Below are positions 38,673 through 63,108 of a stretch of DNA of 64,000 nt, piece after piece. This DNA is from Azolla caroliniana (Eukaryota > Plantae > Polypodiophyta). Under the pieces are notes generated by a model. It ran no database searches and was not told the origin of the DNA. It worked only from the letters and a program-made list of their open reading frames with translations. How positions within the stretch are numbered: position 1 is the stretch's first letter; every line of letters starts with the position of its first letter. The stretch covers positions 20,708,001-20,772,000 of the forward strand of contig JBHGNT010000002.1 in NCBI GenBank assembly GCA_043228905.1, read 5' to 3'. The position numbers were made by a program, and so were the translations under genes.

Positions 38673-41600
38673 TGTCATCTTGATATGGCAAGACTCGAAC
38701 CCATGACCTTGTGTTACATGGGTCGAGCTCTTGACCATTAAACTATATGTAGTAATACAAAAGATATTATTTTCATTTAAGTTTTACTATAGAAAATTGA
38801 TGTATATTCCAAATTTCTCTGGAACATTCTAGAAACTTCAAGAGTACTCCTGAGAACACTATAAAAGGAGGCACAAGGCATTATTTCGAACCAAATCAGT
38901 TCAACGCCGGACTTAAGCCTGATAGCTACTATTGTATATTCTCTTAACACAATATATATCTTTTGTTATCATCATTCTCTCTCTCTCTCTCTCTCACTCA
39001 CTCATTCTTTCCTTCTCTCGAGAGTTCTACACCTGCCTTAGTACTAATCCTCATCTTTTAGTACTAATTCCTTCTCTATCTTAGTATTGTTCGTGACAAT
39101 ACTTCTTTGTCTTAGTACTGCTCCTAACAGTTTGAACCAATTTTTTCCCGTCTCCTTTCTTCTCTTCCTTTATCTTCTTACTTCTCCGTCCCTTCATACT
39201 AATCTCTTATTCCTCTTTTCTCTCATACTATGGCCATTGTTAGCGCTCAAGAATATCAATCCGTTTTTTCGGAGTTGCAATGCTTGAAAGAGAAGTTTCT
39301 CCCATTGGAACAAGAAAATCAACAATTGTTGGGGGAGCTTCAACAAATCTCCTTAGAGAAGCAGCAGACACAAGAACAACATGGGGAACTAGCGTTACGC
39401 ATGCAATAGCTCGAAGCAACCATAATAGCAATGCAACAACAAGGACCCAGTACGCAAGGGGTTCATAAAGAACCCAAGATCGGCCTTCCAATGAAATTCG
39501 ATGAAACGCGATCACAGTTTAGAGGATTCCTTCATCAGGTACGATTAGTCATTAAAATGCATCAATCAAGTTTTGCAATGCTGTTGCCCCTAATACTTCT
39601 GGCAATACTCATGATATCCCAATGATGCATCACGAGTGGGTTTAGTAGGCATGGTGTTAAGTGGCTCAGCTTTGGCATGGTTCGCTCCGTTGTTAGAAAA
39701 GGAATCTCCTTTACTAAACAATTTTGAAGAGTTTTTAAGTGAGTTTAAAGCCTGTTTTGGAGATACTAACAGCATAAGGACAAAAATCAACAAAATCCGA
39801 CGATTACGTCAAGGTGATCGTCCAGCCTCTGCATACGTTGCAGATTTCCGCCTACTCACCTCCAATATCCCCTGGGATGACCAAGCACTTATGGAGCAAT
39901 TTCATTATGGTCTACGTAACGATGTTAAGGATTTAATCTTGACCTTCCCTGAAGAACCAAAGTCATTGACAGAAGCAATAAGTCGTGCGCTGAGATGCGA
40001 CAACCGTCTTTTCGAACGTCAGTTCCAAATGCCAAGGGCAAGATCAGAGCCCACCTATGCCTCAATGGTAGCAAAACCTTTTCCAAGGGAGTCATATAAT
40101 GCGTCTCCAGTGAATACTCCAAATCCGATGGAAATTGACACTACTGTCGTCGTAGACCATTATCAGAAGAAGAAAAGCAGCAACGCCGAGCAGGTACGAC
40201 TATGTCTTTATTGCGGTGGACCAGGGCATATTGCAATGAACTGTCCCCATAGGCCAAGAAGACAGGAGAACCAAATAGTTGCTAATTCCAATAGTCCTGA
40301 CAGTACTAATAGCCCAAATCTATCGAACAAATTTGATGTCCTTAGTCAGTTAGAAGAAGAGTTAAACGACTAAGTCCAGCCAAAATAGGAGCTGTTTGGT
40401 TGGATAGCCCTAGATCTGTGCAACCCATTAGTGGTTCCATTCCCTCTAAGAAAGTTAGCAATGTGTTCTTAGCCCAAGTAACCGTTAGTACTAAAAGTAC
40501 CTCTCCAGTACATGTCTCAACACTCCTAGATTGTGAAGCTAATTCTTGCTTCATGGATAGGAATTTTGCCCAAGCTCATCAGATATCCCTAAGAAAACTC
40601 CCGTGTCCAGCCTCTGTAGTAGTCATTGATGGTCGTCCCATTGCTTCCGGAAATATCATAGAAGAGTCAGAGCCCGTTAATATTGTCCTAGATAATTTAG
40701 CATGTGTAGTATCCTTTAATATAATTAGTATCCCAGAACATCCCATTGTTTTGGGATTACCATGGTTCGAATTACATAACCCAGACATAGATTGGAGAAC
40801 AAGAGAAATCCGGTATCGACAAACCCGAGGATCTACTCATAAGATTGCAACCATTTCGCTACATCAGTTGCGTGAGGAAGGACGCAAGGAAGAAATGTTT
40901 CTCTTCGCAGTATCAGTAAAACCCTCCAACACCACTAAAGAGTCCATCGTTCAACTTCCAGAGAAGTATCGTTATTATTCCGCCTCACTAATGCACCAAC
41001 AATCTTCCAACACATGGCAAATGATATATTCCGAGATCTCTTGGATGTTTGTTTGATTATCTATTTGGATGATCTACTGGTTTATTCGAAGACCCAAGAA
41101 GAGCATGATTCTCATGTACTATTAGTACTAAAATGACTTCGAAGAACATGGTCTTTATGCAAAGCTGGAAAAATGTAGTTTCGAGTGCAATTAGGTAGAA
41201 TTTCTGGGCTATGTCATTTCCTCGGAAAGCATCTCCATGGATCCAGCTAAGGTCAAAACGGTGGTAGAGTGGCAGACTCCAAGTTCGTTGCAAGATATGC
41301 AATGCTTTTTAGGCTTTGCCAATTTCTACCGCAAGTTTATACATGATTGCTCAAAGCTTCTTCTGCCTCTCACACAACTCACCAGGAAGGGACAATCGCT
41401 TGTTTGGTCTAATGAAACAGACATGTCTTTTGAGGGTCTTAAGAAGTCATTTACATCAGCTCCTATTCTGGCTCATGTTGATCTAGAAAAACCATTCATC
41501 ATCGAAGTAGACGTGTTAGATTTCGTGTTGGGTAGCATTCTATCACAACAAGGCGATGATGAAAAGCTCCATCCTTTGGCTTTCCACTCACACAAGTTTG

Positions 41601-43949: not shown

Positions 43950-45384
43950 TCGACTCACTCATTCTTTCCTTCTCTCGAGAGTTCTACACCTCCCTTAGTA
44001 CTAATCCTCATCTTTTAGTACTAATTCCTTCTCTGTCTTAATACTGTTCCTGACAGTACTTTTTTGTCTTAGTACTACTCCTAACATCGACAGTACCACA
44101 TGACATTATTAGAGCAAAGTTTAGTCTGCCCCCGATGTTAGTAGAAGCACTATTTTAAGTGGTAGTTTTTATTCATCAGATACATAGCCAACCACAAGAT
44201 AGGATATCATGTCGAGCCTTTGAGGCATCTCGATCCCTAGATGCATCTGGAGACACTAGCTCTTGGTATAGCACTGTGGTGAGTTGGTTACTTGCTAACG
44301 GCATAGACATTAATAACCTACCCCCCCTTAAGTACAACAATGGGACTGACCAAACTCTAATATCTCATGAAGACCGTAATAAAGTGATACGCCAAGAAAT
44401 ATGGCAAATTTACACTCGATATAAATGGATCACCCCACGAGAGCCACTCCCATCTAAAATGTTGTACTATAAGGAACACTTCTTGCACTTCTCTCAGTTA
44501 GTTTTATTACACAACCAAGATATCTAGATACATTCTTATCAAATGCACTAAGGGTGGCCATTGGACAACTTAGGATATCATCTCACCAACTTGAGATTGA
44601 GAATGGTCGGGCTAATAGAGTCCCTAGGGAGGAAAGGCTATGTAGGTTTTGCCACATAGAGATAGAGGATGAGTATCACTTCACATGCAAGTGCCCAACT
44701 TATGCTGAGATACGAGTGGCATACCAAGACATATTAGGACCCTGTCCCACCCTCTTCAAACTATTAGATACCCTGGATGTAAAGAGACTAGGTAGGTATA
44801 TCTTAGAGCTAAAACAACATAGGGAGAACCCTAAATTATAAAGTATTAACCATAACCCTTTTACTATTCATCAACTTGTAACTAGTGTAATTTTTCAGGA
44901 ACAAGGGGAGACGATGAATGTGGATACACTTATGCCGCTTGGCCTCTCTCTTGAGGAAGCCGAAACGCAAAGAACAACCAAACGCCCTCGGATGTTGGGC
45001 TTCAAAATAAGTCGACACAGAGTAGAAAGGATTAAGACGATAAGGGAACGTGAGCTACGTCGACTAGAAGCTTTGGTTGGGGTACCTTTTACATTGGGGC
45101 AACGAGCCACATCCACATCGAAACCCTTTGATCTCCCACTTCTCTTCGAGAGACTTGGATGGAAATGAAATTAGGCCTAGTATAACATCATTTTCATTGT
45201 AGAACATGTTTGTTATTTTATTTTACTAGAACTATTTAGCTTAAAACTCTATTTTTATTTTTATCTTTTACTTTCGATGAATGGGTAAATATCCCATTTT
45301 TTGTTGTAAACCATTTGTCTCATGGGCCAATTTTGGTCTTAGAAGACGTTAATATATCTTTCTTTCTTTCTCTCTCTCTTTTTG

Positions 45385-46249
45385 GTGAAAACACACAATT
45401 ATATTAATAAATGTGTGTAAAAAACAGTACTTACAATTAGTGTGACAATGGAGTATGGTCACCCACTAACTATAGTACATGGGTAGTGGAATATGTTGAA
45501 TTGCCAATAGGCAAGAAAAACACTCCACTGAGGAAATAATTTCCACTTGCACCAATAAAGAAAATTGCCACATTAGTACTCCCTTCAACTTTCGTAGATA
45601 TGCTTTCACTCCATGGACCATGTCTACCATCGAATACAAAAGCGTTGCGCATGTTCCAATTATTACGCAATCCCCAATATCTTAGAAATAGAAAAACGAT
45701 CTCCATCTCTGATTTTAGGTCAACCTGTGTAAATTGTGCAAACACAACTGTCTAGGTGTCAAATAATATTGTGATAAAACTTGCCAAATTTGAGAAATGT
45801 AACTCCAAATCTGACAAGCAATCGAACATTGTATAAATCGATGAGTATTATCTTCCATTTGAGTAGTGCAAAGAAAGCAATTACCCGTTGCTAGTCCATG
45901 ATGCTTTAGAGCTAATCCCAAAGGTAATCCTCCAATCAAAACTCTCCAAATGAAGACCTTTGCCACAAGTGACAATTTAGAATGCCAACTACATTGTAAG
46001 ATCTATCACCACCCATTATCAGATTTGTGTATTTTCCATTCTTCTTCAGCCTTAGATAATAGTCATCCAAGAGACTGAACAGAGCAATGATACAAAAGAT
46101 GAGTAGTTACTTGTAACAATGATGTTTGACCCCGTAAACACCAATCAATCCACGGTTGTTCTCTTGTTTGTAGAGGTAAGGGACCTTGTATCAATGCAAT
46201 ATTTTGTAGTTGTTGCCAAATAAACCCATAATTAGGTGTGATGTGTAAT

Positions 46250-46253: not shown

Positions 46254-46289
<36 letters not shown>

Positions 46290-48328
46290 AGTGTCATGTC
46301 ATAATAACATTTTATGTTAGTGTCATGTTTTCTTCATATTCGTGAATATACGTTTTATGAGTTTTTGAACATTCAATTATAATTTGTAATGACATATTTT
46401 GATTCGATCTCTATAGTTCATACTCATTTTTTGTAAAGTTCTAAAGTGAAGAGATTGGCACCTTTACTAGTTGTGAGATGAGAACATCGATAATTGCAAG
46501 ATGAGCTCATCATCAATACAATTATGTATTTGAACTATTTGATTATTATGTTCGTGCTTTCTAATCAATTTTTATGTTCATGCTTTCTAATGTTTAGTAG
46601 TTTTAGTAATTCCTAAGTTTTGAACTTTCAATTGTGTTGACATTTGATTCAATCAATATATAATATAGACCATAGTCATTTTTTGAAATTCCAATCTTTA
46701 TTTTTTTTTCCAACTTCTAAATCCTGTCCAACTTTGATATGATTTACCATACACGTTTGATTGATTCATCATTCTTGAATGCGAATGTACGTATGGTATG
46801 TATGATTCATTCTATGCCTACAAGTATAAAATTCAAGGGATTTTGTGGCTAAAACATATGTAGATAAGTAATACTTTATGTTGCACAAAGTTCCCAAAGA
46901 TATACAAACAATAATGGATGCTTTTTGGTAGTATAGTTGTGTTGTTATGTTGCAAATCAACCTCACTAAGTTAAAGTTCTTACCTTTATGTTGTCAAAAG
47001 AATCTATGAGAAGGGTGCGAAAGACAAATGCATATAATGTATAAAGTGTTTTGCAACAACCCCTTGATGTGTGTATGCATGAGTTTTTTGATGCAAATTT
47101 GTTGGGTATTTGGAGAGCACAAAGCTCTTCAGGATCGAAGGGAAAGGTTGACGACATTGTCTGTTGTGGACACACCGTGGTCTACAACTCCACACTTCTT
47201 CTCCCTCCGTCATTGATCATGGAGAGGATCCCATGCTTGAAAGAACTTTTTGGGTTCTATTGTGTGGGTTCCGTTGTCATGAAGATTTTCAGCAACGGTA
47301 TGAAAATTGTGTGCAACGAATGAAATCGAGAAGGTGCAATGTGCACGTGTGAAAGGGGTGAAGGCCACACGCATATGCTAGCATGTTGTAAATAGGATTG
47401 AAATGAGAATCGTAAAAGAAAAGCTAGATGTAAAGTTAAACATGTGCACGTGTGATGTGCGCTCAATTGTAAATATAAAAATAAGACTAAGACCTAGTAA
47501 CATCTAAGTGCATACATAGGGATGGAAGCAAGGCTTGAACCTTGCACCTCCAAGATAGGAGACAAATTTACTTACCATTAAAGCCACTATTGAGTGCTTT
47601 AGAATTTGTATATTTTCTTTTTCATATTCGGTATTTTGTAGGAAGCAAACATATAGAAACCGTGGGCACAAAACCATGGTTTTAGCCTGTGGCTTTAGCC
47701 CATGGTTTTTGCATGGAGAGACCTATAAAAGCTTATAGTTGGGCTTGTGTAAGGGAGGCAAGTGATGTAAGTAAAAAAAGAAACTTTTAATCAAAGATCG
47801 GAGTTATCCTAATGGTGATGTGTGTTGTCTCGTAAAACTAAAGTCAAGGGTTCAATCTCTCTCTCTCTCTCTCTCTCCATCTATCTATCTTCAATACTTT
47901 CTCGCTTACACTGCAAAAAACATCGAATCCTTCCGGTCCAAGACCCCGGTGGTCCTACTTCATTTCACGAACACACGAGGATTTCCTTAACATCTTACTT
48001 GGTGAACCCGACGTGAAAGAAGCGGTAGGAAGGATCAAGTCGAGGATCAACCGATAATTGGAGATGGCGTCCTCAAGCAATCAAGCAAGAGAGTTCGAAA
48101 GGATGATGCTAATTGTTGAGCAAATGATGAGATCTCGGGACAACGATGCGACCGTGGAGAAGGCTATCGATCGTGTCGTGAAGATCGAGGGTCAATTTGA
48201 TGGAAGGAACATTACAAAGTTCCTTGACGCATATAAAAGGGAGATGAATCAGAGGGATGTGTTTGAAGCACGTCAAATCTCAAGTTTCAAGAGAGTTGCC
48301 GCCAACAACGTCCAAAGGCGGGTCATCG

Positions 48329-51300
48329 TGTTACGAATCCACGCTCCGATTCACCTTCACCGTTCGGCCACAACCGAGAAATCACGAATCAATGCAGCAG
48401 AAAATAGGAAACACAGAGAAAGACACGATAACACAGGGATTAACGTGGAAAACCCTATACGGGAAAAACCACGGGAGTGCAAGACTCCAAACCAAAACTA
48501 TGCACAGAGAAATATACAATGGCGAGCTGCAAGGCGACGACCTTGAGCTCGCTGTCCTCGCCACAGGCGGCGGTATTACACAGAGGCGTCGACCTCTTCC
48601 TCTCTCACGCTCTATCTCTCTCACGGCTGCTCTCTCTTCACTCCTCTAGAGTGGAAAAACAGAAAAATGAGTAGCAACATAAAACTGTTTGCCCTAAGTC
48701 ATATTTATACACATATGACTTTAGGGCTATTTACAAATATAGCCTCCAGGGCCCTTGGCAAAACATATTCACAAATATGTCCCCGCATCCGGATCTCTCT
48801 CCGGGTACATTCATCATCCGGCTCCGTAGCCGGGTCTTCATCATCCGGCTCCGTAGCCGGGGTCTTCATCATCCGGCTCCGTAGCCGGGGTCTACATCAT
48901 CCGACTCCGTAGCCGGGTACTCTTCATCCGGCTTCATGCCGGGTACTCTTCATCCTCCGGTTCCGTAACCGCAACCGGGCTTGCCGTCATTCATCTCCGG
49001 ACATCCCATCCGGAGGGACCGAAAATCCCAACAAACTCCCCCTTCACTTCGGCATGGGATGTCTCTCCAATCCGATCCTCTTCCGGCATGCTTCCAGCTT
49101 GTCGGGTGTGAGCACCTTGGTCAGCATATCCGACCCGTTCTCGTCCGTGTGGATCTTCGTCAGCACGAACTCCTTGTCTTCTATCCTTTCTCGGATCCAG
49201 TGGTATCTACGCTGGATGTGTTTCGTCCGGGAATGGTAGGCCGCGTTCTTCGCAAGGTGGATGGCACTCTGACTATCGCAGTAGAGCCGGTACTCCTCCT
49301 GCCGGATACCGAGCTCTCTAATGAATTCCTTCATCCATATTATTTCCTTGCCGGCTTCAACAGCCGCCATGTACTCCGCCTCCGTGGTTGACAACGCAAC
49401 CGTCTTCTGCAGCCTCGACTGCCACGAAACAGCTCCCCCTGCATACGTCATCACATACCCGGATGTGGACCGGCTGGTATCCGCATCAGCCGACATGTCC
49501 GAATCGGTAAATCCATCGAGTTCGGGCTTACCGGAGCCGAATCGGAGGCACATGTTCGAAGTGCCCTTTAGGTATCGGAGTATCCATTTGACCGCGTTCC
49601 AGTGCTCTTTGCCGGGATTGCTCATGTACCGGTTCACCACTCCGACTGCATATCCTATGTCCGGTCGGGTACACACCATTGCGTACATCAAGCTCCCGAC
49701 GGCAGAGGCATATGGTACTTTCATCATGACCTCCTTCTCAGCCTTTGTCTTGGGGCTTTGCTTCCTGGACAGCTTGCAGTTTGCCGGGAGTGTTGACCCG
49801 ACCGGTCTTGCTTCCGACATGTTGAACCGGTGAAGCACCTTTGTCACGTACTTCTCCTGTGACAACCACAACTGCTTCTTCTTCCGGTCCCGGATGATGT
49901 GCATCCCTAGTATTTGCCTCGCCGGACCCAGGTCCTTCATTGAGAAGGTTCGGTGAAGAGCCTTCTTCAACATCCGTATCTTGACCTGGTCTCGTCCGAC
50001 GATCAACATGTCGTCCACGTACAGGAGGAGTATTAGAAAGTCTCCTCCTTCGAACTTCTTCACAAACACGCAGTGATCGGTCTGCGTTTTGTGGTACCCT
50101 TCGTCTGTCATGAAGGAGTCGAACTTCCGGTACCATTGCCGGGGAGCCTGCTTCAGACCGTAGAGGCTCTTCTTCAACCGGCATACCAGGTGCTCCTTTC
50201 CTTTCTTCTCGAATCCTTCCGGTTGCTGCATGTAGATCTCTTCTTCGAGGTCACCGTGAAGGAATGCCATCTTCACGTCCATCTGTTCTACCTCGAGGTC
50301 CATGCTTGCCGCTATGCTCAGCACCGTCCGGATGGAGGTCATCTTCACTACCGGGGCAAATATCTCGTCGAAGTCGACGCCCTTCTTCTGCTGGAACCCC
50401 TTCACCACGATCTTGGCTTTGTATCTCGGGGGGTTTCCGGCATCTCCCGGTTTCAGCTTGAACACCCACTTGTTTAGAAGTGCCCGCTTTCCTTTCGGCA
50501 ACTCCACAAGTTCATATGTGTGGTTCTCATGCAGGGAATCCATCTCCTCCTGCATGGCACTTAACCACCTGCGGCTATGTGTGTCAAGCTCTGCTTCTTC
50601 AAAACTCTCCGGCTCCCCCTCGTCGGTTAGCAGCACGTGCTCTGGTTCCGGAAATCTCCGGGGGGCCCTTCTCTCTCTTAGAGGATATCTCCGTTCCGGG
50701 GCTTCGGTAACCGGCTCCTCCATTTCCTCTTCATCCGAATCCATTTCGGGATCGGGGCCGGTTTCGGTATCAGTTTCATCTTCCTCGGCCGGTTCTGTTT
50801 CTTCACCGTCTTCGGCCGGATCCTCGAGTGCTAACCGGTCCCTTGCCGGTCGGGACTGCTCTTCGTAGAGTTGATTCTCACCGGTCGACTTTGAGCTCTT
50901 CATCTTCTTCTCCGACTCCCAGTCGGCGAGTGTCTTGTCCTCCATGAAGATGATATCACGACTCCTGAATATCTTCTTGTCGACCGGGTCCCATACTCGG
51001 TAGCCGAACTCGTCGTTGCCGTAACCGAGGAATATGCATGGCCGGGTCTTTGGATCTAGCTTTCCTCTCCGGTCCTTTGCCACATGCACATATGCGAGAC
51101 ACCCGAACACCTTCAGATGCCGGTAGGATACTTCCCTACCGGTCCACACTCTCTGCGGCGTGTCTCCGTCCAAAGGTACTGAGGGTGATCTGTTTATCAC
51201 GTATGTCGCCGTCGACATTGCCTCAGCCCAAAACCCCTTGGGTAATTTCGCATGCGCCAGCATACTCCGGACCCTCTCCATTATGGTCCGGTTCATCCTC

Positions 51301-53852
51301 TCGGCCAGCCCGTTCAGTTCCGGCGTCTTCGGCACAGTAAACTCGAGCCGGATTCCCTTCGAGCGACAGTACTCCTCGAACTGCACCCGGTATTCCCCTC
51401 CGTTATCCGCTCGTATCGCTTTCAGCTCCTTGCCGGATTCCCTTTCCACTCTCGCGTGGAGTTCTTTGAAGACGGACAATACTTGGTCCTTTGTCTTCAA
51501 CGGTGCCGTCCACAGCTTCCGGCTGTGATCATCTATGAATGTTACGAAGTACTGGGCTCCGCCATGTGACTTCGTTTCTACCTGACACACATCAGTGTGC
51601 ACCAACTCCAATGGTGCGCTACGTCTCGTCGGTGGCCTTGAGTGGAAGGAGGCTCGGTTCTGCTTACCGGCCAGGCAATCAGTGCACTTCTCCAGATGCA
51701 CATGCTTCACTGGGATAAGGTTGTCTTCTGCAAGCCTCTTCATCCCCTTCTCACTCATGTGGCACAGTCTCTTGTGCCACAGCTCACCGGCAGTGTCGGC
51801 TGCCACGTTCAACTCTTCCGGACACAACCGGGCATTCATAAGGTACAGTGTGTTGACTTTCCGGGCCCGAGCCACTATCAGGCTCCCTTTGCTGAACTTC
51901 ATGACACTGTTCCGGATGCTACCCGTGTAGCCTTCATCGTCTAGCCTCCCGGCCGAAATCAGGTTCAATCGAACCTCCGGAACGTGTCGAACATCCTTAA
52001 GCAGCATTTTGCATCCGGTCGAGGTTGTCAACCACACGTCTCCTATGCCGGCAATCCGGCACGTACCTTCCTTTCCCATCCGGACACAGCCGTGCTCACC
52101 GGCTGTGTATGATGAGAAGTATTTCTTCTCGGGGGTCAGGTGGAACGACGCTCCGGAATCGACCACCCAGGTCATCTCTACATCGGCAAGATTTAGCTCC
52201 CTTTCTTCGGTAATGAGCATTATCTCTTCTTCACTTGCCGCGAGTGCCGTCGTTCCTTTCCGGTCCTGCCCTCGCCGATCCGGACCTCTCCGGTCCGTGG
52301 ATCCCCGGTATGCACCGTTTCGCTCCGGTGACTTCTTCGAATCGGTGTCGTCGGCTCCGTTGTCTTTTCGGTAATGCCGACAATTCTTCCGGAAGTGCCC
52401 CGGCTTCCCACAGTGGAAGCATGTGGGTCTTCCTCTTGACTGCGACCGGGTCCCCGACTTCTCTCGTCTTTGCGGACTCCGGTTCCATTGTCTTCCCCGA
52501 TCCGATTCGGTAAGCAGCGCCTTCGGGTCGGAGGCCGGTTCTTTATCTCTCCGACGCGCTTCTTCGTTCAAAATACTTGTCTTTACCGTTTGTAGAGACA
52601 AGTTATCTTCGGTGCAGGAGGTGCTGAGAGTCACCACCAAGTTCTCCCAGCTTTCCGGCAATGTACACATCAGAATGATGGCTTGCATTGCATCCTCCAA
52701 CGGGAACTTGATCGCCGCAAGCTGGTTCACGAATCCCATGAACGTGCTCACGTGTTCCACCATACTCTCGCCGTCCCGGTACTTGAGGTTCACTATCTTC
52801 CTCATCAGGGAGGTCCGGTTCAACGCATTCTTCCTCTCGTAGAGGCCCGACAGCTTCCGCCACATCTCATATGCGTTGGTGTCGTTCGCCACATGTTGTA
52901 GAACGCTCACGTCGACGTATTGCCGAATGGTTGCAACGGCTTTCCGGTTCAGAAGCCTCCATTCCGTCTCAAGTAGCCCCTTCGGTATTTCCGACCTGTC
53001 AATCGGTTCGTACAGGTCCCGAACAATCAGAAGATCCTCCATCTTGATCTTCCAATCGGCGTAGTTCTGCGCATTCAGCACCATCATCCCCGGCTGCCCG
53101 CTGCTGCCGCCTTCCATTTTCCGCACTGCCGTCGCTCTGATACCACTTGTTACGAATCCACGCTCCGATTCACCTTCACCATTCGGCCACAACCGAGAAA
53201 TCACGAATCAATGCAGCAGAAAATAGGAAACACAGAGAAAGACACGATAACACAGGGATTAACGTGGAAAACCCTATACGGGAAAAACCACGGGAGTGCA
53301 AGACTCCAAACCAAAACTATGCACAGAGAAATATACAATGGCGAGCTGCAAGGCGACGACCTTGAGCTCGCTGTCCTCGCCATAGGCAGCGGTATTACAC
53401 AGAGGCGTCGACCTCTTCCTCTCTCACGCTCTATCTCTCTCACGGCTGCTCTCTCTTCACTCCTCTAGAGTGGAAAAACAGAAAAATGAGTAGCAACATA
53501 AAACTGTTTGCCCTAAGTCATATTTATACACATATGACTTTAGGGCTATTTACAAATATAGCCTCCAGGGCCCTTGGCAAAACATATTCACAAATATGTC
53601 CCCGCATCCGGATCTCTCTCCGGGTACATTCATCATCCGGCTCCGTAGCCGGGTCTTCATCATCCGGCTCCGTAGCCGGGGTCTTCATCATCCGGCTCCG
53701 TAACCGGGGTCTACATCATCCGACTCCGTAGCCGAGTACTCTTCATCCGGCTTCATGCTGGGTACTCTTCATCCTCCGGTTCCGTAACCGCAACCGGGCT
53801 TGCCGTCATTCATCTCCGGACATCCCATCCGGAGGGACCGAAAATCCCAACA
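48329..53852 (-). mobile_element. Intact Ty1/copia (Tork/Tnt1-like) element C
   Basis: 705-bp LTRs (48329-49033, 53148-53852) differing at ~6 sites, TSD CATCG, Meti PBS at 53134-53145, PPT AGGGGGAGTT. Confidence 0.98.
49044..53117 (-). CDS. Copia gag-pol polyprotein (gag, CCHC, protease, integrase, RT, RNaseH), 1357 aa, uninterrupted
   Basis: Single ORF with CFHCGKPGHFRKNC, WVVDSGAS, HTDVC...IRADNGGEY...NGLAER, QMDVK, LYVDDM and FTDSD. The first ATG after the PBS is at 53117. Confidence 0.95.
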   Translation of the reverse strand: MEGGSSGQPGMMVLNAQNYADWKIKMEDLLIVRDLYEPIDRSEIPKGLLETEWRLLNRKAVATIRQYVDVSVLQHVANDTNAYEMWRKLSGLYERKNALNRTSLMRKIVNLKYRDGESMVEHVSTFMGFVNQLAAIKFPLEDAMQAIILMCTLPESWENLVVTLSTSCTEDNLSLQTVKTSILNEEARRRDKEPASDPKALLTESDRGRQWNRSPQRREKSGTRSQSRGRPTCFHCGKPGHFRKNCRHYRKDNGADDTDSKKSPERNGAYRGSTDRRGPDRRGQDRKGTTALAASEEEIMLITEERELNLADVEMTWVVDSGASFHLTPEKKYFSSYTAGEHGCVRMGKEGTCRIAGIGDVWLTTSTGCKMLLKDVRHVPEVRLNLISAGRLDDEGYTGSIRNSVMKFSKGSLIVARARKVNTLYLMNARLCPEELNVAADTAGELWHKRLCHMSEKGMKRLAEDNLIPVKHVHLEKCTDCLAGKQNRASFHSRPPTRRSAPLELVHTDVCQVETKSHGGAQYFVTFIDDHSRKLWTAPLKTKDQVLSVFKELHARVERESGKELKAIRADNGGEYRVQFEEYCRSKGIRLEFTVPKTPELNGLAERMNRTIMERVRSMLAHAKLPKGFWAEAMSTATYVINRSPSVPLDGDTPQRVWTGREVSYRHLKVFGCLAYVHVAKDRRGKLDPKTRPCIFLGYGNDEFGYRVWDPVDKKIFRSRDIIFMEDKTLADWESEKKMKSSKSTGENQLYEEQSRPARDRLALEDPAEDGEETEPAEEDETDTETGPDPEMDSDEEEMEEPVTEAPERRYPLRERRAPRRFPEPEHVLLTDEGEPESFEEAELDTHSRRWLSAMQEEMDSLHENHTYELVELPKGKRALLNKWVFKLKPGDAGNPPRYKAKIVVKGFQQKKGVDFDEIFAPVVKMTSIRTVLSIAASMDLEVEQMDVKMAFLHGDLEEEIYMQQPEGFEKKGKEHLVCRLKKSLYGLKQAPRQWYRKFDSFMTDEGYHKTQTDHCVFVKKFEGGDFLILLLYVDDMLIVGRDQVKIRMLKKALHRTFSMKDLGPARQILGMHIIRDRKKKQLWLSQEKYVTKVLHRFNMSEARPVGSTLPANCKLSRKQSPKTKAEKEVMMKVPYASAVGSLMYAMVCTRPDIGYAVGVVNRYMSNPGKEHWNAVKWILRYLKGTSNMCLRFGSGKPELDGFTDSDMSADADTSRSTSGYVMTYAGGAVSWQSRLQKTVALSTTEAEYMAAVEAGKEIIWMKEFIRELGIRQEEYRLYCDSQSAIHLAKNAAYHSRTKHIQRRYHWIRERIEDKEFVLTKIHTDENGSDMLTKVLTPDKLEACRKRIGLERHPMPK

Positions 53853-55929
53853 CATCGAGATTCAAGAAAGGAAGACAACGTGGTCAAAGTTTGAAAGAGC
53901 AATATTATCGGAGTTTGCGATGGAAGATTTGTCGTGGATGACTCGACATGTCTTGATGAAGTGGATAGAAAAGAAAAATAAGAAGATGAGCGCCTCAATG
54001 GTATACGACGAGTTCAACCAGATGTTTAGTCGTCTCCCTGCCACGGACCAAGTGCTGCTTGAGGAGGACAAGACTTTGTACTTCCTAAAAGTTTTGGATA
54101 TGAAGGATAGACGAGAATTGGGGACTCTCCTCGAAGATGATACCCAAGTGAATGGGCTTGTGGAAGACTGGGTTGCGGTGAAGAGAGCATGCAACAAGAT
54201 CGATAGGCGTCATGAATGGCTTGAAGATATTGACTTGGTAAGGTCAAACATAGAAAAAACAAGACCATCTAAAGAAGTCGAGTTGCCTAAACAAAGCAAC
54301 CTACATGAAAAGAAGATTGATGATGACTCGAGGACAGAGAAGGCCACTTCGAGGGAGGATGAATGTTTCGGAACATGCGTCGTGTTCGAAACATCGGATG
54401 ATGAAGGAGCAAGCTTAATCGAAGCTTGCATCAAGGGAGATAAAGAGTGTGAGGTCGACATGATGGAGGATCTAGCCACTAAAATCGACATCAAGGAGGT
54501 GGCTATGAAAGGAACAACAAGTGTCGGCAATGACCACGGCCAAATTTTCTCCGCACTTGTTCCAAAGACTTGGGCAATTGCATCCAAGAACCAACGTGAG
54601 ACCCAAGAGACGGAAGGTGTCGGCGAGGAGCCGAAGGTCAAAACTAATACATGAGACGAAGAGGGAAGCATAATCGAGGCTTGCTCGATCAAGAGGGTTA
54701 ATGGGTACGAGTTCCATGAGTCTATAGAGGTAGCCACGAAAGAAGCCATCGAGTCGGAGGTGGCTATGGACGAGTCAATGGAGAATGACCATGTTGAGAC
54801 TTTCCCGCCACTAACTCTAGAGACTTTGGCAGTTGCGTTCGAAAGGTAACATGAGACCGAAGAGACGGAAGGTGGCAGAGAGAAAACAAAGGTCAAAGTC
54901 GATGCATATGACGAAGAGATAGCCGAGAAGGTGGCTATGGGCGAAACGACGGAGGATGGTAATACCAATGATTCTTGCCCACTAATTCTAGAGACTTCAA
55001 CGGTTGTGTCCAAGAACCAATGTGAGACTAGAGAGACGGGAGGTGGCAGCAAGGAACGTAGAGCCGGAAGTGAGTTCGAACAGAAGATGATCCGGCCGGA
55101 ATTCCGGCCTAAACAAAAACCAAACCAAGTGGAAGTGGATTTGGCCGAAATCTGATCGGTTAAGCCCGACCCGGATGGAAATCGTTCCAGCCGGAAGCCG
55201 ATCAGACGAGACCAATCCGAAAAGAAGCTAATTCGACTCAACCGGAGGTCGAACCGGTCGAGGCCAGTAAACACGAGGAAATGGAAGCGAACCTGGACCG
55301 AAATCAATCGATCGAACCCGACCCGACCCGAAAGGGGGCCAACTCGGTTGAAACCAATCAGCCAAGTCCAATTCAGTCGAATACAAATCCGAATGGCAAC
55401 TGATTCAACCGAAAGTCGATCGGACGAGACTGATCTGGAAAGAAGTCAAGGTTGATGAAGACAAGGAAGAGGCCAAGCAAGCACACTACCATGGACAATA
55501 AGGGCCAAATGAGCCAAGCAGATTTGAAGGGTGTTACCGAGGATGAGATCTCGACTAAGGAGGGCTCTTACATGAAGATCATCAACTCTAACGCGAGATT
55601 GTACGTGTCAGGAATAGTACTAAGCAGAGATGGAATTAGTACTAAAGAAGAGCAGTACTATTAGTACTAAGAGGACGGGACTGCGTAAGACTCCCGAGAG
55701 AGAGAGAGGATGATAACAGCCAATATATTATGTGAAGGATACTTAGTACAAAATGGCTAATAGGCTTAAGACTGGCGTTGAACCAATTTGGTTCAAAACA
55801 ATGCCTTGTGCCTCCTTTTATAGTGTTTTTAGGAATAATCCTGAAGCTTCTAGAATGTTCCAGAGAGATCTGGAATATACATCAATTTTCTATGATAAAA
55901 CATAAATGAAAATAATATCCTACAAATTA

Positions 55930-56000
55930 CAATTCATAGTCTAATGGTAAGAGCTCGACCCATGTAGCATAAGGTCATGAGTTCAAGTCTTGCCATATCA
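55930..56000 (+). ncRNA. tRNA-like Pol III A/B-box module at the LTR U3 tip (copies also at 61105-61175 +, 38680-38750 -, 43500-43570 -, 47525-47590 -)
   Basis: A-box TAGTCTAATGG (55937) and B-box GAGTTCAAGTC (55979) at tRNA-like spacing, with partial D, anticodon and T stems. Confidence 0.55.
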
Positions 56001-56912
56001 TGACACTATCTCCCCCTTAAAGACGACAAGTGGAACGAGTCGGCGCTAATTGCGGACCGGGTTTGTCCGGATACTTTCGGTGGAAATCAGCAAGAAGATC
56101 CTGTGCATTGGCAACATGCTCGACGGGTTCCCAAGTACGTTCGCTCGGACTATAACCGAGCCAATCGACCAAGTAATAAAGTTTGTTGCGAACAAGTTTG
56201 GAATCGAGGATGGCAGCAACTTCATACTCCGGGCCGACGTCCAACTCCAGCGGGGGCGGCGGTGGTGTCACACGATCGGGAATGGTGTTTGCTTTATAAG
56301 GTTCAAGAAGAGAACAATGGAAAACCGGATGTATCTGAAGCTGTGGAGGGAGATCAAGGCGGAATGTGCCATCATTAATCTTACCCATAATACGGAAGGG
56401 ACCGAGTCGTCGATAATCCAACTTGTCGCACGGTCGAGTAGTCTTGATTTGACGACGTAAGAGCCATACTCGATCTCCGATGGCAAAAGAGGAAGGAATC
56501 TGATGACGATCCGCATAAGTCTTCTGTGTGTGTTGAGCATGACGAAGGTGAGTAGAGAGATCCATCTGGATCTTGCGTAGCCTCTCCAAATGATCCTTGG
56601 CACGAGGATTGGTAGGTAGCTCCGGGGTGTCGATCACCGACCAACGAGGATGGAAAAACCGGTATAAGCGAAAAATGGGGAGACCCGAGTCGAGGAGTGA
56701 ATAACATTATTATATACAAACTCCGCAAAGTGGAGAAGCTCGGCCCAATCGTCCTATTGATAACTCAGGAAACACCGGAGATATTGCTCCAGCGTTTGGT
56801 TTGTTCGTTCCGCCTGCCCGTCGGTCTGAGGATGGTAGCCGGAGGAGAGATTGCAGGAGACCTTGAGCATCTTGAAGAGATGCTGCCAAAATTTGGAGAA
56901 AAATTGCGGTCC

Positions 56913-59072
56913 TCAGTCACTGATGATACTGTCTGGGAGGCCATGATGCCGAAATACCTCACGCATAACAAGGGTGGCGGTTTCCTCGCTAGTGATGGCT
57001 TTAGTACAAGGCACAAAATGTGCCATCTTCGTATATCGATCGACAACGGTTAGGATAGCATCGAACCCCTTCGAGACCGGCAGATCTGTGATAAAATCAA
57101 GACAAATAGACTGCCACGGCTTACTTGGAATCGGTAAGGGTTCCAACAAGCCATATGGATGGTGTCGTGGCATCTTTGCTCGGTAGCAAGCATCACAAGT
57201 CCGAACGTAGTCGTCGACAAAACGGCGCATGTGGGGCCACCAAAAAGATCGTTGCACTAGCTCCAACGTCTTAGTACTACCGAAATGTCCCTCCGTATGG
57301 GTGTCGTGACAATGTTGGACAATTTGAAGGCGACAGGAGCAATCGGGGACATATACGCGCTTTTTAAAGAATAACAAACCATCATGATATTCGAATTGTC
57401 GGTAGTCAATACCTGGTTGTTGAGACCAAGAACAGGATGCTCGAGAAGTATCAATGTGCGCCAAGATGTCTTGAGCAAAACTATCCGTCTTCAAGGTTGC
57501 ACGTATGTCATCGGTAATCCGTGAATCCATCGAGGTGTGAAAAATCCGCGTTGTGTGCAATCGTGTTGGTCCCAAGATTACTTGCTTTTGATTATCAAAT
57601 GTTGCATCACCAAGACGAGGTGCAAGATATGAACGTCGTGATAGTGCATCTGCTTTTCCTTGCTGCTTCCCCGGTCGATATGTGATTTTGAAGTCGAAAC
57701 GCGTGAGGAATTGCGCCCACTGAGCTTGCCGTCGATTTAGTACGCGAGCGTTCTGAAAATAAGCAAGATTTTTATGATCGCTAAAGACAATGACCTGATG
57801 TGGAGAGCCCTCTAAGAAATGCCGCCATTGTACAAATGAATCCACGATGGCTAATAACTCCTTGTCATGTATTTCGTAGTTGATTTCTGCGACATCGAAT
57901 TTGCGCGAATGGAAAGCCACCGGATGCAACTCTTCTTTATCTCCTTGTTGAGAAAGGATGCTACCGAGGGCAAAATCTGATGCGTCGGCCTCCATGATGA
58001 ATGGTTTTCTTGTATCCACATGAGCTAGAATCGGTGCTGATGTAAAGGCTTTCTTAAGATGCCGAAAAGCCATATCTGCTTCTATGGACCAAAGAAATGC
58101 TTGGCCCTTCTTCGTAAGTTGTGTGAGAGGTAAAATAATCTTTGAGTAATCCTGTATAAACTTACGGTAGAAGTTAGCAAAACCTAGAAAACATTGTACA
58201 TCTCGTACCGACCGTGGAATTTGCCACTCTAGTACAGTTTGGATTTTAGCTGGATCCATGGCGATGCCCTTTGAGGAGATGACGTAGCCTAGAAATTCCA
58301 CTTGCTTGCAGTCAAAGCTACATTTTTCTAGCTTGGCATAAAGACCATTCTCGCGGAGTAGCTTTACTACTAATAGTACATGAGAATCGTGCTCTTCCTG
58401 GTCTTCCTGGGTCTTCGAATAAATCAATAGATCATCCAGATAAATGATCAAACAGATATCCAAGAGGTCTCTGAATATATCATTTGCCATGTGTTGGAAG
58501 ACTGCGGGTGCATTGGTTAGGCCAAACGGCATAACAGTATACTCGAAATGCCCATACCGCGTGCAAAAGGCGGTCTTCCATTCATCTCCCGGTCGGATCC
58601 ACACGAGGTTATACGCTCCTCGTAGGTCGATTTTAGTAAAAAACTTGGCACCATTAACTTGCTCTAAAAGACTTGATATAAGAGGAAGTGCATGCCTATT
58701 CCGGATGGTGACTTTATTCAATCCGTGGTAATCAACAACAAGACGAAGTGAGCCATCTTTCTTCTTGACAAAGAAGATGGGTGCACTGCCTGGAGATTTC
58801 GAATGATGGATGAACCCGCTTGCCAAGTTCTCCTCTATGTAGGCTCGAAGGACTTCTAACTCGATGGGTGACAAGTTGTAAACTGGTCCCCATGGTGGCT
58901 CGGTTCCTAGTTGTAAATCGATGGGACAGTCATAGGGACGGTGATGAGGAAGGGTACCGGCTTTTACCTTGTCAAATACATCGGCATAAGGATGATATTT
59001 TGCTGGAAGTTGTACTGAGGAGTCCTTCTTAATAGTGCTGGAAGGATGTACTGATATTGGAAATAGGAACAT
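56913..59072 (-). pseudogene. Chromovirus pol segment (RT, RNaseH, integrase N-part)
   Basis: KIDLRGAYN, MPFGLTNAP, YLDDLLIY, EADASD, HDKELLAI, H-H-C-C integrase zinc finger, LDFIT. Confidence 0.9.
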
Positions 59073-61629
59073 TGCCTCCTTGGGTCCTTCTTCGCGTAGT
59101 TGATGGAGTGAAATGGTCGAAACTCGGTGAGTTGATTCTTGGGGTGGTCGATATCGGACTTCTCTTGTTCTCCAATTTATGGCGGATTATGTAATTCAAA
59201 CCAAGGTATTCCTAGGACAATGGGATGCTCTGGACTACTAATTATATTAAATGATATTACACACACAAAACTACCTAGGACAACTTGAATGGGTTCTGAT
59301 TTTTCTACAATATGCCCGGAAGCAATGGGACGACCATCAATGACTACTACAGATGCGGGACAAGGAAGTTTTCTTAAGGATATCTGAGAAGCTTGGGCAA
59401 AATTTCGATCCATGAAACAGGAATTAGCTCCGGAATCTAAAAGTGCTAGGACGGGTACTGGGGGAGTACTTTTAGTACTAACAATGACTTGGGCTAGGAA
59501 CACATTGCTAACTTGCTTGGAAGGAATGGAACCACTAATGGGTTGTACAGATCTAGGGCTGCTGTCCAACCAAACGGCTCCTATTTTGGTTGGACTCAAT
59601 TGTTTAACTCTTCATCTAATTGACTAAGGATTTCAAATTTATTTGAGATACTTGGGCTATTAGTACTATGAATACTATCAAACACTCTATTAGTACTATT
59701 AATACTATCAAACACTCCTAAGGGAAGAATTGACTCGGGTTTAGTACAAGCTACAATTTGATTTACCCGTCTTCTTGGCCTATGGGGACAATTGATTGCG
59801 ATATGCCCTGGTCCACCGCAATAAAGACATAATCGATTTGCACGTCGTCGTTGCTTTTCTTCTTCCGATAACGGGCCACGTCAACGCATGGTATCGATCT
59901 CCATCGGTGTCGAAGTATTTGCTTGAGGTATGTCTTGTGCAAACGGTTTAGCCGCGACTGCGGCGTAAGTGGGCTCCGGCCTAGCGCGTGGTATCTGTAA
60001 TTGACGTTCCGAACGCCATTCGAAAAGGCGGTTGTCACATCGGACCGCTCGACTGATTGCCTCTGTAAGAGACTTTGGTTCTTCGGGGAAAGTTAGAAGT
60101 AGATCTTTGACACCGTTTCGCTCCATTAGTGCTTGATCATCCCAGGGTATGTCTGAAGTGAGTAGGCGGAAATCCGCCGCGTAGGCAGAGGCTGGACGAT
60201 CGCCTTGACGCAATCGCCGGATCTTGTTGATTGTCGTCCTGATGCTGTCGATGTCTCCAAAGCAGGCTTTGAACTCACTAATAAAATCTTCAAAGTTATT
60301 AAGCAAGGGCCATTGTTTTTCTAGAAGCGGAGCGAACCATGCTAAGGTTGAGCCGCTAAGCAATGTGCCTATTAAGCCGACTCGGGATGCATCAGTGGGG
60401 TATCGGGAAGGATGCATTTGGAGGACTAATCGTACCTGATTAAGGAATCCCCTGAATTGCGATCGCGTTCCATCAAATTTCACAGGAAGTCCAATCTTCG
60501 GCTCTTTATGAAATCCCTGGGGACTTGATCCTTGTTGTTGCAATGCCGCTTCGAGTTGTTGCACCCGTAACGCTAACTCCCCATGTTGTTGTTGCGTTTG
60601 TTGCTTTTCTAGAGCGATTTGTTGCAGATCCCCTATCAGCCATTGGTTTTCTTGTTCCAAGGCAACAAATTTTTCTTTTAAGCATTGTAGCTCGGAGAAA
60701 ATGGATTGATATTCTTGGGCGCTAACAGTAGCCATAGTATAGGGAAAAGGGTAGGAGGGAAAATTGGTTCAAACTGTCAGGAATAGTACTAAGCAGAGAT
60801 GGAATTAGTACTAAAGAAGAGCAGTACTATTAGTACTAAGAGGACGGGACTGCGTAAGACTCCCGAGAGAGAGAGAGAGAGAGAGAGAGGATGATAACAG
60901 CCAATATATTATGTGAAGGATAAGTACAAAATGGCTAAGAGGCTTAAGACTGGCGTTGAACCAATTTGGTTCAAAACAATGCCTTGTGCCTCCTTTTATA
61001 GTGTTTTTAGGAATAATCCTGAAGCTTCTAGAATGTTCCAGAGAGATCTGGAATATACATCAATTTTCTATGATAAAGCATGAAAATAATATCCTACAAA
61101 TTACAATTCATAGTCTAATGGTAAGAGCTCGACCCATGTAGCATAAGGTCATGAGTTCAAGTCTTGCCATATCATGACAGTACGACAAAGGTGGATGAAG
61201 TGCGGAGTGCCTTGACCAAGGAGATGGTTGGAATGAAGGTGGAACATGCATAAAGCCTAGATGGTTATGCTCAGAAGCAGACCAAGGGGACATGACAACT
61301 GGTCATGGTAAAGCAAAGAATGAGTGAATGATATGGTGGATTGGGTGGCGACAATGGTTCGAGTGAAGGGAATGGACATGCTTGGGAAAGTCTCGACACG
61401 GTCATCCGTTGTGGACTCTTCCATAGCCATTTGTGACTCGATGTCGTAAGGATAATCGCAATGGCAAAGCTTACTTCCATATTCCTCATGGTCGTGATCA
61501 TGCTCACCGCGTGTACCGCGGCCAATGCTAGGTCTGTAGGGCGGGACCGTGAAGAGGAGCGACAAGATCGACGTAGTGAGGGAGACATTGAAGAAGTAGA
61601 GACGCCTAAACAAAGCCACCACTTAATTA

Positions 61630-62417
61630 TGTCGTGAAAAATCTATCACTACGTGCGGATTGTGAGGCAGAACCGTGGGGGTTCTAAACCGGAAGGATTC
61701 GAAGTTTGCACTAGCTTTAGCGAGAAAGTATTTAAGATAGATTGAAAGAGAGAGAGACTAAGATAAGATAGAACGCTTGACTTTAGATTGAGAGAGATTG
61801 AAATGGAGAGAGAGATTAAGGTTGAACCCTTGACTTTAGATTTGAGGAACAAGATATATCATCAATTGGATAACAAATTTTCTTCTTATTAAATTCTTTA
61901 TTAATACATCGCTCCTTTTTCTTTTTCATCCACTCTTTTATAGATGACCCCATGCATATGATGCATGTGAGGATGAAAGACATGCATGTAATGGACAAAA
62001 TGCATGAGATGCATGAGCGCCAAATGGCAAACATGCATCACATGCATTCCATGCATTGTATGCATGTCTTGTACCCTCACGTGTATCATATGCATGGGGA
62101 CATCTATAAAAGAGTGGATGAAAAAAATCAAAAGGGGCGATGAATTAATCAAGAATTTAATAAGAAGAAAATTCATTATCCTATTGATGATATATCTTGT
62201 TCTTCAAATCTAAAGTCAAGAGTTCAATCTTAATCTCTCTCTCCATTTCAATCTTTCTCAATCTGTTTCAAAATTGGAATCTTAATCTCAATCTCTCTCT
62301 CTCAATCTATCGTAAATCCTTTCTCACTAAAGCTAGTGCAAACTTCGAATCCTTTTGGTCCAGGACCCCGGCGGTTCCGCCTCACGATCCGCTCGTAGTG
62401 ACGGATTTTTCACAACA
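61630..62417. repeat. 788-bp foldback built from two inverted LTR-like halves
   Basis: The arms are reverse complements throughout (TGTCGTGAAAAAT... / ...ATTTTTCACAACA). TATA boxes at 61935-61943 (-) and 62104-62112 (+) are symmetric about ~62023. Confidence 0.9.
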
Positions 62418-63108
62418 TCGTGACAACAAAGGAGTTGTGAAGGGCCTCGGTAATAGACACGCCGATTGCAAAGGTCGAGGTGCACGGGACCAAACGAGTC
62501 GAGGAGCACTAAACCGAAGGGGTCATGGGATGCATGTCCGGATTGGACGAGGAGCGCAAGCGAGGCGTCGGGACGCCAAGAGAGAAGGCGGGAGTGACGA
62601 ACCAGCCAGAGTTGACACAATGAGACCTCAAGTTGAGCTTGAGGGGGAATGTTGAGAGACAAGCTCAACATGGGCCGAATCGGTTGAAGAAGCCGAGAGC
62701 CGAATCGGTTGGAAGCCGATTGACTAGGCCCAAATCGGGTGAAGAATCTGAGAGCCAAGAGCCAAGAGCCGAGTCGAATGAAATATGAAAAGGTCGTTAG
62801 GGGCCTATAATCCTATTATAGTAAATAGGAATATTATAGGTAGAATTATTGTCAGGCTCATTTATGAACATTCAAGTACTGATGATACTTGTGTCAGCCC
62901 AATTGTTAGGGCTTGTATAAAAAGTGCTCATTGAGCACGGTGTATGTATAGAGTGTTCATTATTTGAAATTGAAGTATTGTTATCTGCTCTCTTTGTTTC
63001 TCTCTCACTGTGTATCATTCTTTGTGTTTACCTAACTGTCGAGTTCTGAACAATCGACTATGTACTCAGCGTTTATCGCACACACTTCTCCACACTAATA
63101 CTTTTACA
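62418..63108 (+). mobile_element. 3' end of a copia element: 3' internal region, PPT and 3' LTR (62650-63108)
   Basis: PPT TTGAGGGGGAA is followed by TGTTGAGAGACAAGCTCAACA, matching the start of the LTR at 2877. Ends CTTTTACA. Confidence 0.85.

Follow-up and report, generated by a model that had tools for sequence, protein, structure and literature searches.

Antisense A and B boxes of the tRNA-gene type appear, from sequence comparisons, to be a real and genome-wide feature of the long terminal repeats (LTRs) of gypsy elements in this plant, and a function for them is likely. The copy studied here lies in a window of 64,000 nucleotides of Azolla caroliniana DNA, which is a nest of LTR retrotransposons within a 523-Mb plant genome.

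The element and LTR carrying the module

A genome search with window positions 47400-48060 gave 41 scored matches. The start of homology fell at 47262-47294 in 29/29 other copies fetched. These starts, the LTR pairs and the left flank CCGT, which fits NCGN, define a 718-bp 5' LTR. The original prediction had placed the module at the left end of the LTR. Because the LTR ends were set at 47275 and 47992 by paired LTRs, the module was re-assigned to LTR positions 241-316, in U3. The features of the interrupted element are as follows.

47275..47992, + strand: 5' LTR, 718 bp, TG...CA, of a Trp-primed non-chromovirus gypsy element of Phygy type ("family A")
47477..47481, - strand: first T5 run downstream of the B box, a possible Pol III stop, in an AT-rich region
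47515..47590, - strand: tRNA-derived A/B-box module, antisense, mid-U3
47532..47541, - strand (read 47541-47532): B box GGTTCAAGCC, agrees with GTTCRANNC, 12.5 bits
47575..47586, - strand (read 47586-47575): A-box-like motif TGGCTTTAATGG; in family A it has one T more than the canonical box
47724..47731, + strand: putative TATA box of the element's own Pol II promoter, from motif and place
48000..48017, + strand: primer-binding site, 18 nt complementary to host tRNA-Trp(CCA)
48064..48328, + strand: start of a gag-like ORF, cut by a copia insertion
48329..53852, - strand: nested copia element, no A/B module, 5-bp duplication CATCG, LTRs 99% alike
53853..55605, + strand: remaining gag-like region of the Trp-primed element (53853-55054 is 81% identical to sibling L031)
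55606..61179, - strand: nested chromovirus (RT, RNase H, integrase, chromodomain), Tcn1-like, likely self-primed, duplication GTACG
61185..61382, + strand: last traceable piece of the Trp-primed element (61206-61382 is 92% identical to L031)

No polypurine tract or 3' LTR of the Trp-primed element was found after 61382 within the window. The tRNA-Trp primer site, as originally proposed, was confirmed: positions 48000-48017 match the 3' end of a host tRNA-Trp gene with CCA at 18/18 letters. The gap between LTR end and primer site (47993-47999) is 7 nt, and it is 4-8 nt in sister families. The usual gap is 0-3 nt, smaller than in the window element and its sisters.

Paired copies carry the module in both LTRs. 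Among 16 fetched stretches, both LTR matches cover the boxes in five family-A elements. In sister families the module is present in two LTR copies in 11/20 stretches; one paired element, L177, has it in neither LTR. The family-A elements recovered whole are short (3.9 kb) and carry gag alone. Gag-only short derivatives are abundant, for example L031:1200-5097 (3.9 kb) and L205:106-3624 (3.5 kb). Two loci with family-A LTRs (L032 and L033) have insertions of about 600-700 bp early in U3, at LTR positions 71-111. Elsewhere in the window, positions 61629-62418 form a 790-bp fold-back with arms 85% alike, in which the right half (TATA, R, U5) of a family-B-type LTR occurs twice, as inverted copies. 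It has TG...CA ends and no A/B module.

Sister family B is 7.3-8.7 kb long and encodes RT-RNase H-integrase with no chromodomain (Pfam); its gag piece is 79-88% identical to that of family A. The named homologues of the pol protein are from Riccia (liverwort) and Adiantum (fern). In eight paired sister elements a 4-bp NCGN target duplication is exact in 5/8, has one mismatch in 2/8 and is missing in 1/8. Phygy elements are described as having a tRNA-Trp primer in 81%, a 4-bp NCGN duplication, a length of 7.7-10 kb and no chromodomain (Neumann et al. 2019, PMC6317226). Phygy traits are shared by the window element in its Trp primer and by its sister elements in NCGN duplication and domain order without a chromodomain. 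By these traits (primer, duplication, domain order and size) the host element fits the Phygy lineage. Phygy-type and Tcn1-type elements occur together in this genome, a combination that, set beside PMC6317226, would suggest a moss as host. The Phygy passages of PMC6317226 describe no LTR module, and the term "tRNA-like" does not occur in its main text.

Boxes and scores of the module in the window

The minus-strand tRNA-like letters at 47515-47590 are as first reported, and the A-box to B-box distance of 45 nt holds when counted start to start. The weight matrix, made from 72 host tRNA gene sequences alone, gave the window module 19.1 bits. Scores of 19 bits or more occur in only 0.7% of 300 reversed 1,050-nt control windows. 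The 17-letter core of the module has 2,746 exact genome matches (control 0). The module agrees with the B-box consensus, which is expected of TFIIIC sites of the tDNA/ETC type (with or without an A box). The putative TATA box at 47724 follows about 135 nt downstream of the module, in the direction of the element. The window copy is old and may no longer work.

The D, anticodon-like and T stems that had been proposed all pair in the window copy, but shuffles and consensus fold do not support a tRNA-like RNA fold. The fold of the window module is weak (z -2.0), and 7/200 shuffles are equally good. No tRNA was called by ARAGORN in the window and no Rfam tRNA hit was obtained; with the weak fold, this rules out a tRNA gene. 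A conserved cloverleaf with acceptor stem and anticodon arm was ruled out by the fold, consensus and covariation tests. Real host tRNA genes (Lys, Trp and Gly) were seen in long tandem arrays elsewhere in the genome (G000 C5:17.99 Mb, C8:17.80 Mb, C9:17.8 and 19.7 Mb, C16:5.0 Mb).

The module is part of the LTR

Forty core loci, all on contig C1, were fetched from the first 100 of the 2,746 matches listed. With the module masked, Phygy-type LTR sequence was found on the TATA side at 40/40 of these contig C1 loci and also on the other side at 31/40. A candidate LTR start was located in 37/40 loci, 111-737 nt from the module; none of the 37 starts lies 30 nt or less from it. A second sample consisted of 60 evenly spaced stretches of 10 kb (600 kb). 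There, the module is present in 13/33 Trp-type LTR ends, all 13 antisense (reversed control 0), a count that is not independent of the Trp-primed families because the profile was partly seeded from them. The single unlinked match is a truncated LTR. A free-standing SINE outside the LTR, which the original prediction had named as the contrary case, is ruled out, since 40/40 core loci on contig C1 and 14/14 hits in the 600-kb sample sit in LTRs. The other contrary case, copies that lack the module, applies to branch F (below) and L177; the module is not universal.

A non-LTR repeat with a terminal hairpin bears its own tandem tRNA-type A/B modules (window 24117-24290, L281-L310, remnant 46270-46830). 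This repeat is probably Helitron-like.

An origin of the module by read-through of reverse transcriptase into the Trp primer was considered but finds no support in alignment: family B aligns to tRNA-Trp with a score of 39.5 and the shuffled maximum is 42. The best host tRNA for family B is Arg-TCT, with alignment scores of 54-61 (in an incomplete set of 96 tRNA sequences with 19 anticodon labels). The duplex rank leaves a weak case for a Trp read-through origin in families A and B.

Presence and absence among Trp-primed families

In the RT tree (38 rows), G branches off first within the Trp-primed clade, E follows, and F groups with B; family A, which lacks an RT, could not be placed. The module-bearing families G, E and B surround the module-less branch F. 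Family G is about 71% identical to B. Branch F (L229, L198, L213, L194:4306-5000 and L232) has no module, a short U3 and a long R/U5. Its LTRs are 99.1% alike, so it is young and was recently active, and it serves as a natural control without the module. Family D copies are 99-100% alike and were therefore recently mobile. In the 600-kb sample 20/33 Trp-type LTR ends are without the module, and many Trp-primed LTRs have no good one, because of 14 LTRs located through the Trp primer site only 2 reach 17 bits.

The young family G (L204:3880-4843 on the - strand, L311-L322) has two tandem antisense A/B modules in U3 in 11/12 loci. A third tRNA-like module, in sense orientation just behind the TATA box, was seen in 10/12 loci. 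The two antisense modules differ in sequence from those of other families, and they may represent a separate capture. For the Trp-primed clade, one gain and a loss in F is the simplest history.

Modules in chromoviruses and their absence from copia LTRs

Four further A/B modules in the window belong to chromoviruses.

38692..38745, - strand: A/B module of a second chromovirus, 18 nt from an LTR start, 27.4 bits
43512..43565, - strand: A/B module of the second chromovirus in its following LTR, 26.8 bits
55937..55989, + strand: chromovirus A/B module in the 3' LTR, antisense to the element, 16 nt from the LTR start
61111..61163, + strand: chromovirus A/B module in the 5' LTR

For one chromovirus core, 3,863 exact matches were counted in the genome. 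With the host-tRNA matrix, antisense boxes reach at least 17 bits at 11/18 chromodomain-anchored LTR starts, at a distance of 10-62 nt, and sense boxes do so at 0/18. The background of the 17-bit threshold is 1%. None of 32 copia-anchored LTR starts reached 17 bits on either strand, some low-identity anchors among them possibly being no true start. Nine of ten chromovirus-profile hits are clearly in LTRs. The tenth is L192:9200-9400, where two worn tRNA-type modules lie beside a repeat that resembles, by eye, window 45362-45706.

It had been proposed that the two gypsy lineages carry the same module. The alignments do not bear this out: scores of the window module against chromovirus modules are 22-40, no higher than against ordinary host tRNAs (38-45). 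Cross-lineage scores are mostly tRNA background, with one pair (D with T1, 54) above it. The best host match for the window chromovirus module is tRNA-Thr/Ile (in an incomplete tRNA set). Chromovirus modules differ among themselves and from the Phygy-type one, and what the two types share is only the A box, the B box, the spacing and the antisense orientation. The original prediction also held that different sequences occupy the same position and orientation. The difference in sequence and the antisense orientation stand; the position differs, at 111-737 nt from the LTR start in Trp-primed elements and 10-62 nt in chromoviruses. Judged on sequence, Phygy-type and chromovirus modules are best described as of the same kind and not as the same module. 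Read as a shared kind, the suggestion of a shared or convergent functional module across gypsy lineages seems fair, because the boxes lie in the LTR, in both LTRs and antisense in both gypsy lineages, while copia is without them.

In the window chromovirus the R region begins with sequence (about 60955-60965) complementary to the element's own primer site (60762-60774), as in Tf1-type self-priming. The chromoviruses here appear self-primed (PMC6317226). Self-priming bears on one alternative, in which U3 of the genomic RNA would complement the D and T arms of a tRNA and so grip the primer tRNA, like the split primer site of yeast Ty3. Pairing of this kind needs precisely the antisense orientation, Ty3 U3 segments do pair with the T and D arms (PMC5371799), and tRNA-Trp ranks 2/19 in duplex energy in families A and B. 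Yet in four other Trp-primed families (C2, D, E and G) its rank is 8-15 of 19, exact matches to Trp reach no more than 7-8 nt, the primer site alone is already a full 18 nt, and the apparently self-primed chromoviruses bear modules too. We consider primer gripping quite unlikely.

Conservation of boxes, spacer and fold

Within family A the module is 0.905 identical, compared with 0.918-0.929 for the rest of the LTR (27 LTRs; 3/29 copies were dropped as interrupted). There is no excess conservation, as expected for post-insertion decay, and this comparison gives function no support. Between families, the module is the sole blastn island (E<=1e-3) in the pairs A-D, B-D, B2-D, C-D, C2-D, B2-C and B2-C2. 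For the box test, 40 loci were picked by the B-side 17-mer alone, which left the A side free. The free A-box core TARTGG was found in 31/40 loci, RTAAG in 37/40 and C61 in 39/40. The spacer is 18 nt long in 32/40 loci and 19 nt in 5/40. A changed A box, AATGAT, is common to five loci of one subfamily. Families B and D/E are 0.8-1.0 identical at most A-box positions and about 0.3 identical in the spacer. The same holds in 14 family examples, in which the boxes are kept and the spacer differs.

In 26 metagenome contigs the motif lies within related LTR sequence (70-93% best match to own-genome LTRs). An unconstrained GTTYRA is present in 24/26; only this free B box counts, because the search pattern fixed the A box.

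The stems of the original prediction pair in 82% of cells. Compensating pair changes are no better than in shuffles (95-183/500), and the consensus fold is negligible (-0.57 kcal/mol, 0/8 pairs compensated). What is kept therefore looks like DNA boxes and not an RNA shape, because the boxes stay and covariation and a consensus fold are absent. The fold results also bear on a reading in which the product matters: Pol III would transcribe the module as an active gene, and its short antisense RNA, as a small RNA source or decoy, would modulate or restrain the element. Good boxes are kept in the young families B, D and G and in chromoviruses, T runs lie downstream of some modules, and single modules form stable hairpins (z -3.8 to -5.4 in three examples). 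The hairpins, however, differ between families without covariation, family B has no T4 run within 190 nt, and a chromovirus transcript would exit the LTR after 10-62 nt. A role of the transcript is improbable.

The best-kept stretch in families A-E is the 11-mer GGAGGTGCAAG, which adjoins the B box but is no TFIIIC motif. The kept island could be a site for a Pol II transcription factor (GGAGGTGCAAG / CTTGCACCTCC) that lies by chance in the relic of an old tRNA. The 11-mer is absent from family G and from the chromoviruses, which nevertheless keep the A and B boxes, and the A box, 18 nt away, is kept at a fixed spacing. We give this explanation a slim chance.

The module could also be a passenger, a SINE head or tRNA pseudogene that landed in an ancestral U3 and is copied without a role, with the G+C-richer boxes aligning better than the AT-rich flanks. 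The lack of excess conservation in family A agrees with a passenger, as do the loss of the module in branch F and by deletion in single copies and the presence of such boxes in non-LTR repeats of the genome. Against it, the boxes and their spacing persist while the spacer, equally a tRNA part, turns over. Two lineages have different module sequences in one orientation, family G has two antisense modules of yet other sequence, and no free SINE with the module head was found at the 40/40 core loci. On balance a passenger is unlikely.

Proposed function

By analogy with known TFIIIC sites, the module may be a selected A/B site of the tRNA type that is likely bound by TFIIIC as DNA and would act as a chromatin barrier beside the Pol II promoter; we put the chance of this at about even. 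A and B boxes recruit TFIIIC, which sets TFIIIB upstream (PMC13437025). tRNA genes and ETC sites are TFIIIC-dependent barriers (PMC12409998). In mouse, chromatin boundaries arise at mobile B2 SINEs (PMC8136502), and silent chromatin is the presumed target of chromodomain elements (PMC7466625). Taken together, these reports suggest that the module may separate the flank from the Pol II promoter as a barrier. The barrier data in PMC12409998, in its passages on TFIIIC, come from yeast and animals, with none for plants. Copia elements without the module nest in the same DNA, which argues against a selected barrier.

In the proposed sequence of events, the head of a SINE, or a tRNA gene, would have been taken up by an ancestor of the Trp-primed (Phygy-type) clade; chromoviruses, and perhaps family G, would have made one or more captures of their own. 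Purifying selection would then have acted on the boxes while the families were active. TFIIIC is predicted to bind the module, with TFIIIB then expected to assemble on its TATA-box side. A Pol III transcript, if made, would be about 115 nt long in the window copy and would run outward from the Pol II start. This would explain the antisense orientation, because Pol III would then not read across the start site of the element. Silent chromatin spreading from the flank would be slowed at the bound site.

A wider claim is possible and more doubtful: that two gypsy lineages separately recruited tRNA-gene boxes as a portable putative TFIIIC barrier, which would keep the Pol II promoter open in silent chromatin and would have seeded more than 6,600 TFIIIC sites across the genome. 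On this view autonomous retrotransposons would bring a tDNA insulator of their own. If TFIIIC binds, the module would suggest, in concrete and testable form, why elements located in silent chromatin can still be expressed. It would also give a first handle on plant TFIIIC barriers, with branch F, copia LTRs and deletion copies as natural controls. The at least 2,746 + 3,863 exact core matches could compete with real tRNA genes for the factor.

Comparison with known systems

A literature search, with thin coverage of subscription papers, found no account of antisense A/B boxes in the LTRs of autonomous gypsy elements from mosses. PMC10886601 remarks that tRNA-like parts occur in many LTRs of Repbase, and its analysis is confined to terminal-repeat elements of the TRIM type. 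The closest known system is the Helenus TRIMs (TRIMp3; Kojima 2024, PMC10886601). As in the elements described here, both Helenus LTRs contain a stretch derived from a tRNA that keeps boxes A and B, is no working tRNA and does not serve as primer; its proposed origin is a SINE insertion into an LTR, and Selaginella is given as the only plant case (PMC10886601). Unlike the present elements, Helenus TRIMs are non-coding, 311-1263 bp long and thought to be transcribed by Pol III (PMC10886601), whereas here 7-9 kb gag-pol and 3.5-3.9 kb gag-only elements keep a TATA box. Two Helenus/TRIMp3 traits are thus missing: the elements are not short and non-coding (3.5-8.7 kb, coding), and the module is not placed to transcribe the element. 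In all linked cases it is antisense in U3, upstream of the TATA box, and since it faces away from the element it cannot make genomic RNA. PMC10886601 argues that Pol II is required for autonomous elements.

Cassandra TRIMs also have a Pol III promoter from a small-RNA gene in plant LTRs, but that promoter is 5S-derived and drives its own transcript in a non-coding TRIM (PMC10886601). Barriers at tRNA genes and ETC sites resemble the module in having A/B or B-box motifs able to bind TFIIIC without making tRNA; they are fixed host loci in yeast and animals (PMC12409998), whereas the putative sites here are mobile and present in thousands of copies. The bipartite primer-binding site of Ty3 has U3 sequence complementary to the D and T arms of a tRNA. 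Its segments match its own primer (PMC5371799), while the tRNA-Trp match here is short and inconsistent, and self-primed elements are included. tRNA-derived LTR boxes were known before in tiny non-coding TRIMs; here they are found in full-length coding elements of two lineages, in a non-productive orientation.
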